Assembly (NCBI RefSeq): GCF_003334355.1
Contig: NZ_QOWP01000014.1
Length of the DNA stretch: 64,000 nt
Reading direction: 5' to 3' (one strand)
DNA from: Escherichia coli
GTDB lineage: Bacteria; Pseudomonadota; Gammaproteobacteria; Enterobacterales; Enterobacteriaceae
Below, in pieces: positions 56,906-60,088 of this stretch (position 1 is its first letter; each line of letters opens with the position of its first letter). A model generated the notes under the pieces. The model made no database searches. It had not been told where the DNA came from and saw only the letters and a list, made by a program, of their open reading frames with translations. The translations under genes were made by a program, and so were the position numbers.

Positions 56906-57843
56906 GCATTCGTCCTCTCTGCAATACGCAGAACTGAACTACGGGCACGAGGGTTCTCAGCCACCTCTTCTTCGCCCGGCATTAACTTGCCTAGTGCTCG
57001 CAGCTGACGGCCACCCAGTTTTTTGAGCTGCTCTTCAGTCATCGGTAACCCTGCCGGAACTTGCGGACCGCGGCTGTTTTCACGCATAAAACGTTTCACA
57101 ATACGGTCTTCCAGCGAGTGGAAGCTGATGATCGAAAGCCGCCCACCCGGGGCCAGCACGTTGAGCGAGCTTTTTAGCGCCTGCTCTATCTCCTCCAGTT
57201 CACTGTTTACCCAAATGCGCACCGCCTGGAAGGTACGGGTCGCGGGATGTTTAAACTTATCTTTCACCGGCGTTGCAGCAGCCACGACTTCCGCCAGTTC
57301 TTTGGTGCGGGTCATCGGCTGTTCGCGGTTACGCTCGACAATGGCGCGGGCAATGCGTTTGGCAAAACGCTCTTCACCATAGGTTTTCAATACCCAGGCG
57401 ATATCGGCTTCTTCTGCGGTTTGTAGCCATTCAGCGGCTGACTGCCCACGGGTTGGGTCCATACGCATGTCCAGCGGACCATCGCGCATAAAGGAAAAGC
57501 CGCGCTCAGCATCATCAAGTTGCGGTGAAGAGACGCCAAGATCGAGGAGAATGCCGTCGATCTTGCCGATAAGATCGCGCTCGGCAACGTATTCGCCCAG
57601 CGCGGAAAAAGGTCCGTGGATGATGGAGAAGCGCGGATCATCAATAGTCTTCGCAACGGCGATAGCCTGCGGGTCGCGATCGATCGCCAGCAAACGCCCC
57701 TCTTCGCCAAGCTGCGAGAGGATCAGACGTGAGTGACCACCGCGACCAAAAGTCCCATCAATGTAGATGCCATCAGGACGGATATTGAGGCCATTAACGG
57801 CTTCATCCAACAGCACCGTAGTATGTTTATAGTTTTCCATCAT
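56902..57843 (-). CDS. rsmH: 16S rRNA m4C1402 methyltransferase RsmH (MraW)
   Basis: ORF-track 356 aa trimmed to [19 protein letters not shown] (313 aa), matching RsmH. Confidence 0.95.
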
Positions 57844-57844
57844 T

Positions 57845-58303
57845 TTATAGAGACAAGTCCTGCAGTCGCTCCGATAAGTCTCCGGTAGCCAACTGCTCTG
57901 CGTCGATATCTTCCTTGACCTGTTGATGCCAGGTTGTTTCATCCCACAGCTCAAACTTGTTGAACTGTCCAACCAGCATCACTTCTTTTGTCAGCCCGGC
58001 ATGTTGCCGCAGTACTGGCGCGATTAACAATCGACCTGCGCCATCCATCTGACATTCGCTGGCATGACCTAACAGTAGGCGCTGCACACGGCGCTCAACC
58101 GGGTTCATGCTCGACAGACGCGATAATTTTTGCTCGATAATTTCCCATTCAGGCAGGGGGTAAAGCAGCAGGCACGGGTGATAAATGTCAATGGTGCAAA
58201 CCATTTGACCGGCAGCGTTCTCAAGCAGCTGTTCCCGATAACGGGTAGGCACTGATAAGCGCCCTTTGCTGTCGAGATTGACTAACGTTGCTCCCCGGAA
58301 CAT
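57845..58303 (-). CDS. mraZ: transcriptional regulator MraZ
   Basis: ORF-track 164 aa trimmed to [26 protein letters not shown] (152 aa), matching MraZ; first gene of the dcw cluster. Confidence 0.95.
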
Positions 58304-58322
58304 GCCAGCCTCACCCCTTATT

Positions 58323-58347
58323 CCCACTTTGCCCCACAATTTCCCAC
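58323..58347 (-). promoter_or_regulatory. MraZ operator: three GTGGG direct repeats at 10-bp spacing
   Basis: Plus strand cccac at 58323, 58333 and 58343 (GTGGG on the coding strand), between the promoter and the mraZ start; matches the described TGGGN direct repeats. Confidence 0.65.
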
Positions 58348-58354
58348 TGAAAGG

Positions 58355-58384
58355 AGTTTACGGAGCTGAGGAAAAGCTTGTCAA
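58355..58384 (-). promoter_or_regulatory. Pmra promoter of the dcw cluster (-35 TTGACA, -10 TAAACT/GTAAAC)
   Basis: Minus-strand reading gives TTGACA at 58379-58384 and an extended -10 at 58355-58360 with 17-18 bp spacer, about 50 bp upstream of mraZ. Confidence 0.6.
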
Positions 58385-58859
58385 GCCAGTCACAAGGCAT
58401 ACCGAGGTAAAAAACCCGATGTTTACGGCTAATATCAGCGTTGTTTATTTTACGTCCAACGTGCGAAGCAAATTAACGTTATGAATAGCTGTAAGAAAAA
58501 ATCCCTCATCGTCATCACTGTTTTAAAATGACTCACTATTTTCCACAGCAAATATAAAGTGTCAGTTTGCGACGCGAGCGGCATTTTAGGACATATCTTC
58601 CCCGGTTAACAGTCCTTGTTACGTCTGTGTGGCGCTTGATGCCAGCGGGTTTGCGCAAAAGCAAAGAAAAGTGTTTGTTAAATCGGCAATTCATCGCCGC
58701 ATGTAACAAAATAATGCAAAAACGCGCTGTCGATATCACTTAATTATTGTGAATTTCAGCTGGTGAGTTAATTAACGGGCGGGTTTAAAAGCATTTATCA
58801 ATAATAGTCAGGAATAGTCTTATTTACTTTAAGCATATTGATGTCCAGTCCCGTACTCT

Positions 58860-58898
58860 ACGCGCCAGAGGGAAATTCACCTGGCGCGTATTTTTGTT
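58860..58898 (+). terminator. Plus-strand-oriented intrinsic-terminator-like hairpin in the cra-mraZ gap (no annotated plus-strand gene upstream)
   Basis: acgcgccag-agggaaattcac-ctggcgcgt followed on the plus strand by atttttgtt; in the cra orientation there is no U-tract after the stem. Confidence 0.45.
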
Positions 58899-58904
58899 CG
58901 CGGC

Positions 58905-59909
58905 TTAGCTACGGCTGAGCACGCCGCGGCGATAGAGATTACGTTTAATGCGCGTTAAACCAGGTTTTGGCTTACGCGGTTCGTCCAGGCTTGCCAGGAC
59001 AATCTCCAGCACACGCTCTGCGACATCGCGGTGACGTTGAGCCACTGCCAGCACCGGACACTGTAAGAAGTCGAGCAGTTCGTTATCGCCAAAGGTGGCA
59101 ATTGCCAGGTCAGAAGGCAGTTTGCCGTCGCGACGCAGCGTGACATCCATCACTCCTTGCAACAACGCAAACGACGTTGTGAACAGCGCCTGCGGCATCG
59201 GATGCATTTCCAGCCATTTTTCGAATAACTGGGCAGCCGCCTCCCGCTCATAGCTGTTGGCATACAGGAAATGCACTTCGCGCGGATCATCTTTCCAGGC
59301 AGTACGGAAACCTTGTTCACGCAGGAAGCTGACAGAAAGCTCCGGTAGCGCACCAAGATAAAGCACCGTCTCGGCGGGAAACTTACGTAACTCTTCCGCC
59401 AGCATTTCGGCATCATCCTGATCGGCACCAACCACGCTGGTGAAGTGTTCACGATCGAGGGCGCGGTCCAGCGCGACAATCGGGAACGGGTCGTTAGCCC
59501 AGCGTTGATAAAAAGGATGCTCAGGAGGCAACGACGTCGAAACAATAATGGCATCAACCTGACGCTGTAAAAGGTGCTCAATGCACCGCATTTCGTTGTC
59601 TGGCTGATCTTCTGAGCAGGCAATCAGCAGTTGATAACCCCGTTGCCGCGCCTGGCGTTCAAGATAGTTAGCGATGCGGGTATAGCTGGTGTTCTCCAGA
59701 TCGGGGATCACAAGACCAATAGAACGTGTGCGTCCAGCACGAAGCCCAGCTGCCACGGCGTTCGGGTGGTAATTGTGCTCACGCACCACAGCCATGACTT
59801 TTTCAACGGTTTTGTCGCTCACACGGTATTGCTTCGCTTTGCCGTTAATAACATAGCTTGCAGTGGTCCGCGACACTCCCGCCAGCCGAGCGATTTCATC
59901 CAGTTTCAC
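58905..59909 (-). CDS. cra: catabolite repressor/activator Cra (FruR), LacI family
   Basis: ORF-track 334 aa; GTG start codon at 59907-59909; N-terminal HTH; recognised as Cra. Confidence 0.95.
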
Positions 59910-60088
59910 AATTGCCCCTTGCGTAAAATGTAAAAACCATAGCCATTGTACTGGTATGGGTTAAATTCATTAACATCTAAGCGCAGAAAATTAACTGCGG
60001 CAACTGCTTTTATTCCAGGTTCCCACTGATTTCGCAAAAAAAGCCCAACGTGACATGTTGGGCTGTAAATTGCGCATTGAGATCATTC

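Follow-up and report, generated by a model that had tools for sequence, protein, structure and literature searches.

A U-less stem-loop past the cra stop codon probably forms the 3' end of the cra mRNA in Escherichia coli

The cra-mraZ gap and its contents

The stretch of DNA analyzed here (the window, 64 kb in full) is E. coli K-12-like and corresponds to the reverse complement of MG1655 around 89 kb. It is 99.9-100% identical to E. coli chromosomes, and positions convert as K-12 = 147937 − window. In this region, cra (fruR) and mraZ lie one after the other on the minus strand (Table 1). An earlier note on this DNA had put the gap between the two genes at about 600 bp; it measures 601 bp, and its length is kept across the family, ranging from 557 to 733 bp in 75 Enterobacteriaceae. 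The same note had described the gap as free of assigned content. This is correct for the RefSeq annotation, which holds no feature in the cra-mraZ gap, and incorrect for the literature, which places four same-sense Cappable-seq transcription start sites (TSSs), a CRP SELEX target, and PdhR ChIP binding here. A comparison of positions 57800-59400 with Rfam at permissive thresholds returned no relevant RNA family, and literature searches with the hairpin or conserved-block sequences found no paper.

Table 1. Positions of the genes and RNA features discussed in the text (window coordinates; K-12 positions in parentheses)
Feature	Position	Strand	Basis or remark
cra (fruR) coding sequence	58905-59909	−	ORF list and RefSeq annotation of identical DNA
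cra stop codon, TAA	58907-58905	−	
mraZ	57845-58303	−	Same direction as cra, with cra upstream
cra-mraZ gap	58304-58904		601 bp
Probable 3' stem-loop of cra mRNA	58859-58890 (89047-89078)	−	Folding, sequence, RNAalifold, covariation, wobble asymmetry
TTTTTGTT T-tract	58891-58898	+	In cra-sense RNA, an A-tract 5' of the stem-loop
Mapped 3' end of cra primary transcripts	58855 (89082)	−	SMRT-Cappable-seq, Rich_TTS sheet
Candidate Rho-utilisation region	58740-58817	−	C 23%, G 9%, C/G 2.57 (composition scan); downstream of the hairpin in cra sense

Close to the cra end of the gap, the plus strand carries, in order, TACGCGCCAG (58859-58868), a 12-nt loop (58869-58880), CTGGCGCGTA (58881-58890), and TTTTTGTT (58891-58898), with 6 bases between TTTTTGTT and the cra stop codon. 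The stem is GC-rich and comprises 10 Watson-Crick base pairs, or 11 with a G·U pair in the cra sense, closing a loop of 10-12 nt. The segment 58850-58904 folds at -23.3 kcal/mol on the plus strand (z = -3.30; 0/200 shuffles equally stable) and at -21.8 kcal/mol on the minus strand (z = -2.73; 3/200 shuffles equally stable). The hairpin is non-random and real. In the plus orientation it has a dG of -19.5 and a tail score of -5.07, against -1.66 in the cra sense, where the sequence past the stem reads GAGUACGGG and holds no U-tract (GAGUACGGGACUGGA). When both strands of the window were scanned for hairpins with T-tails, the plus-strand site ranked 5th of 70, beside evident real terminators; the same scan found no second sense-strand hairpin with a T-tail in the cra-mraZ gap. 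The built-in terminator scan missed the hairpin because it allowed loops of only up to 8 nt. Two descriptive points of the earlier note are borne out by these results. Namely, a terminator-like hairpin with a T-tail is present on the plus strand (a 10-bp stem, TTTTTGTT on that strand only, and the rank given above), and the element is not a classic cra terminator, there being no sense-strand U-tract after the stem.

Downstream of the hairpin in the direction of cra, Cappable-seq, as tabulated for the K-12 forward strand, places same-sense starts at K-12 89143, 89237, 89360, and 89590, the last of which is Pmra (Ettwiller 2016). Three of these four starts coincide with promoter-like hexamers scored independently, and the EDL933 TSS table contains only the canonical cra and mraZ starts. 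The mraZ leaders predicted from the gap starts would measure about 490, 400, 270, and 44 nt. The start at 89143 (window 58794, minus strand) has a -10 TATTAT at 58801-58806 and lies ~60 nt past the cra hairpin. As for regulators, genomic SELEX lists mraZ as a new CRP target (PMC3105977), and PdhR binding upstream of mraZ has been reported by ChIP. A putative CRP-like site, TGTGACTGGCTTGACA (58379-58394, minus strand), overlaps the Pmra -35.

Three blocks of the gap are 86-98% identical across the family and bear neither a coding signature nor a conserved RNA fold. The block at 58548-58598 (minus strand, K-12 89339-89389) is near-invariant (94-98% identical across 75 Enterobacteriaceae), single-copy, and unannotated, and 5376 of 5424 E. 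coli genomes have it at >=99% identity. It holds a -10 TAAAAT (58588-58583), the TSS at 89360 (window 58577), and then ~30 invariant transcribed bases, as well as a plus-strand -10-like TAAAGT at 58555-58560. A second block, TTCTTACAGCTATTCATAACGTTAATTTGC (58468-58497, minus strand), is 93-98% identical across the family, has a conserved T-run ahead of it, and looks like a candidate protein-binding site. We know of no good fit, judged by eye, between the conserved blocks and the consensus sequences for σ54, σ28, σE, Cra, PurR, ArcA, CRP, Fur, or PdhR. A conserved segment at 58668-58717 (minus strand; identity 0.69-0.86) contains the inverted repeat TTGTTA (58709-58704)/TAACAA (58680-58675) and the TSS at 89237 (window 58700). 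RNAalifold found no conserved structure on either strand of the 58580-58395 leader in 55 sequences. Overall, the conserved blocks and extra promoters upstream of mraZ are more intriguing than the hairpin.

Small open reading frames in the gap do not behave as genes. The 34-codon plus-strand ATG ORF mentioned in the earlier note exists, at 58639-58743, and is intact in 2/76 loci, so that we reject it as a small protein. We likewise reject a 26-aa plus-strand ORF over the hairpin (intact in 2/76 loci) and a 44-aa minus-strand ORF spanning the conserved blocks (intact in 1/76 loci). The gap ORFs often carry indels whose length is not divisible by three, and the variation within their conserved parts is non-synonymous. 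On the other side of cra, upstream of the gene, RefSeq genomes carry an annotated 28-aa "fruR/shl operon leader peptide," at 59991-60077 on the minus strand. Inside this ORF lies a strong hairpin followed by T7 (AGCCCAACATGTCACGTTGGGCT-TTTTTTT), with its tail near 60042 (minus strand). This hairpin is the probable terminator of ilvIH and lies upstream of the mapped cra TSS (87968, window 59969).

Strand sense and conservation of the hairpin

We examined base pairing in an alignment of ten Escherichia and Citrobacter homologues, from which RNAalifold independently recovers the same helix. The share of paired cells is 89% in the cra sense and 78% in the antisense, and it drops to 33-53% if the pairing partners are slid. 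Three pairs (7 cells) have changed on both sides, and 3 of 500 shuffles show as much covariation. In cra-sense RNA, each of the 12 wobble cells is a G·U pair that would be an A·C mismatch in the opposite-strand RNA, with 0 in the reverse arrangement. In E. albertii and four Citrobacter, this leaves the antisense helix with runs of 5-6 bp. Since G·U pairs are meaningless in duplex DNA and every wobble falls in the cra sense, this pattern argues for selection on the cra-sense RNA; its restriction to one strand speaks against a palindrome acting as DNA and also against a hairpin in antisense RNA. The orientation of G·U pairs can thus reveal which strand's RNA a palindrome serves.

To place the hairpin within the family, the cra locus was taken from 80 Enterobacteriaceae species, 75 of which have both cra and mraZ, giving 76 loci with the window. 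A hairpin lies 3-66 nt past the cra stop codon in 75/75 of the other loci, often with an unrelated sequence. The hairpin is followed by a cra-sense U-tract in 29/76 loci (window included) and is a U-less stem-loop in the remaining 47/76. In Atlantibacter, Kosakonia, Phytobacter, Cedecea, and others, AAAGGCAGC-loop-GCTGCCTTTTTT is a textbook cra terminator; the U-less form occurs in Escherichia, Salmonella, Klebsiella, Kluyvera, and some Citrobacter. As the cra hairpin carries a U-tract in other Enterobacteriaceae, the Escherichia form represents one state of an evolutionarily switching terminator. Along the first ~100 nt past the cra stop codon in loci L003-L081, U-tract terminators alternate with U-less stem-loops, and this set of cra 3' hairpins may offer a clean natural series in which to study how intrinsic and Rho-dependent termination replace each other.

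Two other origins for the E. coli element were considered and discarded. An in situ inversion of an ancestral terminator is ruled out because the 3' arm CTGGCGC, in E. coli (T)CTGGCGCG, has a homologue in Citrobacter that points the same way. A REP or other repeat is also ruled out, because the median number of places holding the sequence is 1 per genome (5,424 E. coli genomes). One natural disruption of the region was encountered: in E. coli 23CRST031 (L087, 750-1446), an IS1 sits precisely at the base of the hairpin that is distal to cra, at about window position 58858. The stem-loop is intact there, and the remaining cra 3' region is replaced.

The T-tract that faces away from cra has a narrower distribution. 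It reads TTTTT in K-12, BL21, and O157, TTTT in Escherichia sp. MOD1, and xTTTTT in E. albertii and E. whittamii. Its tail score falls from -5.07 in K-12 to -3.5 in E. albertii and E. whittamii, and in B2 E. coli the tract is degraded to ACTTTT (-2.62). Citrobacter and Salmonella lack the tract while keeping the hairpin. An antisense-facing T-tract is found in 11/76 loci in all and in 7/72 non-Escherichia loci. As judged from these sequences, the T-tract is a feature of the Escherichia lineage that gives the hairpin the look of an intrinsic terminator facing away from cra.

Transcript ends and competing explanations

Full-length transcript data place an RNA end at the hairpin. In the rich-medium SMRT-Cappable-seq data of Yan 2018 (PMC6131387, Supplementary Data 1), a forward-strand transcript runs from TSS 87968 to the transcription termination site (TTS) 89082 and covers b0080 (cra); the TTS is flagged "novelTTS." Coordinates checked on the MG1655 sequence put it 4 nt beyond the stem in the cra direction. 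Among the reads starting at TSS 87968 (n = 94), 20 stop at the TTS, 24 stop within the next 50 bp, and 6 pass through (PMC6131387), so that the diffuse ends downstream are about as many as those at the peak. A cra-mraZ-rsmH-ftsL read-through variant is present in the same data set (PMC6131387). The cra 3' end is called in the rich-medium sheet and absent from the M9 sheet (PMC6131387). Between 89,020 and 89,299, Term-seq under three conditions (Adams 2021) has no called 3' end on either strand, so that the cra 3' end comes from one data set and one condition, rich medium. The bicyclomycin table of the same study has no + strand entry between 79,798 and 107,527. As cra is weakly expressed, its low expression may be the cause of the Term-seq silence.

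Taken together, we consider it probable that the hairpin is the U-less 3'-terminal stem-loop of the cra (fruR) mRNA, associated with non-canonical termination. Transcription from the cra promoter would run past the stop codon and through the stem-loop, and the stable RNA would end 4 nt later. Polymerase would be released slightly downstream, probably by Rho acting on untranslated, C-rich, and G-poor RNA, possibly with the help of weak hairpin-induced release. PNPase and RNase II, both 3'-5' exonucleases, may then trim the tail back to the hairpin, which would from there on protect the cra mRNA, and a minority of polymerases would continue into mraZ. We infer the involvement of Rho from the lack of a U-tract, the scatter of ends over 50 bp, the C/G of 2.57 downstream, and the higher C/G of U-less loci generally (2.12, versus 1.76 where a U-tract is present; p = 0.009 without correction for phylogeny), all of which match the class of Dar & Sorek 2018 discussed below. 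The earlier note was right to list a Rho-assisted or structural element among its possibilities. Besides the Term-seq silence, two observations weigh on the other side. The reverse-facing T-tract is kept in all Escherichia examined though neighboring bases differ, which the cra-sense model leaves unexplained. Likewise, an A-tract precedes the cra hairpin, which is unusual for Rho-dependent termini.

The earlier note had favored an orphan plus-strand intrinsic terminator, at which a gap transcript running towards cra would be stopped by the hairpin and UUUUUGUU. The sequence requirements of such an element are present in canonical form (a 10-bp GC-rich stem, dG -19.5, tail -5.07, rank 5/70), its T4-5 run is kept in E. 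coli, E. albertii, E. whittamii, and two other Escherichia with differing flanks, and the plus-strand TAAAGT in the conserved block could serve as a -10. Yet we consider this explanation very unlikely. No opposite-strand 3' end is called at 8902x-8909x by Term-seq or at 890xx on the reverse strand by SMRT-Cappable-seq; the best plus-strand promoter score is 8.1, a level at which ~0.65 sites per strand are expected by chance for DNA of this length, and the built-in scan finds none; the helix is not kept in the plus-strand RNA of E. albertii and Citrobacter; the T-tract is degraded in B2 E. coli and absent outside Escherichia (Citrobacter and Salmonella) though the hairpin is kept; and the plus-strand ORFs are intact in 2/76 loci only, with no RNA family found by Rfam. 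The unannotated plus-strand transcript thus has no called 3' end in either data set, and chance-level promoters, unconserved small ORFs, and G·U pairs confined to the cra sense also speak against the orphan terminator. Moreover, with TTS 89082 located 4 nt beyond the stem, the full-length primary cra transcripts stop at the hairpin, the very outcome that the earlier note had set beforehand against its own interpretation. A related proposal, which we rate as unlikely, is that the element has two uses in Escherichia, ending and stabilizing the cra mRNA and also stopping spurious or regulatory antisense transcription before it reaches cra. This would accommodate the mapped sense 3' end together with the canonical-quality reverse orientation in K-12-like strains, the retention of the A/T-tract across Escherichia, and the several promoter-like sites of the AT-rich gap. 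It meets the same counterevidence as the orphan terminator, in that no antisense transcript or 3' end is documented by Term-seq or SMRT-Cappable-seq, and the tract is weakened in B2 strains and E. albertii. In addition, chance and shared ancestry can explain the T-tract, since an antisense-facing tract occurs sporadically, in 7/72 non-Escherichia loci. In a more specific version, which strikes us as quite unlikely, Escherichia would have co-opted the cra stem-loop as the reverse terminator of a ~330-nt antisense RNA started from a promoter in the 58548-58598 block, face-to-face with the sense TSS at 58577. If true, such a terminator would keep antisense transcription out of cra and link the mraZ promoters upstream with a partner on the antisense strand. 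Altogether, a reverse terminator function is possible but unsupported, and its probability is low even with dual use included, because the T-tract is weakened in B2 and sporadic elsewhere and the plus-strand promoters are weak.

Two further explanations set the T-tract aside. The hairpin could be a regulated, attenuator-like read-through point that sets the flow from the cra promoter into mraZ and the dcw cluster. The cra-mraZ-rsmH-ftsL variant with its 6 read-through reads points in this direction, as does the 3' end being called in rich medium and not in the M9 sheet. We regard it as highly improbable, given that no anti-terminator pairing and no conserved RNA structure beyond the single helix were found, that the difference between media may just reflect read depth, and that mraZ is served by a strong promoter of its own and by three more TSSs upstream. 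Finally, the perfect 10-bp inverted repeat, with arms 12 bp apart that could suit a dimeric binding protein, might act at the DNA level, as a protein site or cruciform, or be a chance repeat without an RNA role. This is extremely improbable: pairing is kept through G·U on one strand only, which has no meaning in duplex DNA, compensatory changes are present, hairpins of unrelated sequence occupy the same post-cra position in other genera, and an RNA 3' end maps 4 nt after the hairpin. As for chance, the stability is matched by only 0-3/200 shuffles.

A cra mRNA stem-loop gives an ordinary account of what looks like a wrong-way terminator and leaves the cra-mraZ spacer with one candidate hidden gene or sRNA fewer. 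The result matters little on its own and has some value as an example.

Comparison with known systems

REP elements, which stabilize mRNA 3' ends, resemble the cra hairpin in being extragenic palindromes past a stop codon that can stall 3'-5' exonucleases; unlike them, the cra hairpin is single-copy and has no REP consensus. Bidirectional intrinsic terminators, reportedly described by Ju, Li, and Liu in 2019, are said to carry an A-tract and a U-tract on opposite sides of the hairpin and to lie between convergent units. The cra hairpin is similar in that its neighboring A-tract becomes a U-tract when the other strand is read, but it has one tract only, and its flanking genes are co-directional. 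A canonical (L-shaped) Rho-independent terminator is approached on the plus strand, where a GC-rich 10-bp stem is followed by UUUUUGUU, and in the cra sense in other genera. In E. coli, however, the U-tract lies on the side that does not serve cra, the 12-nt loop is large, the plus-strand helix is not kept, and there is no known transcript for which the tract fits. Judged as a canonical intrinsic terminator of cra, the element has an RNA 3' end after the hairpin and lacks the U-tract; judged as one of the plus strand, it has the stem and U-rich tract and lacks a helix kept in the plus-strand RNA of its relatives.

The closest parallel is with the protective 3' stem-loops of Rho-dependent transcripts (PMC6061677; hypothesis of Peters et al. 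2012). Dar & Sorek 2018 (PMC6061677) described a class of U-less, stable stem-loops at Rho-dependent transcript ends, with C in excess over G downstream, and noted easy evolutionary switching via the U content after the stem; A-tracts are not usual before such termini (PMC6061677). The cra element differs from this class in the A-tract that precedes it and in having no Term-seq call (Adams 2021), and for cra the roles of Rho and of trimming are inferred. It agrees with the class in its terminator-grade stem without a U-tract, located directly upstream of a 3' end that follows 4 nt on, and in the excess of C over G downstream (58817-58740). Moreover, relatives differ mainly in the U content after the stem, as predicted. 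The presence of a canonical hairpin in some orthologues of one gene and of a U-less hairpin in others fits the proposal that terminators switch by the gain or loss of U.
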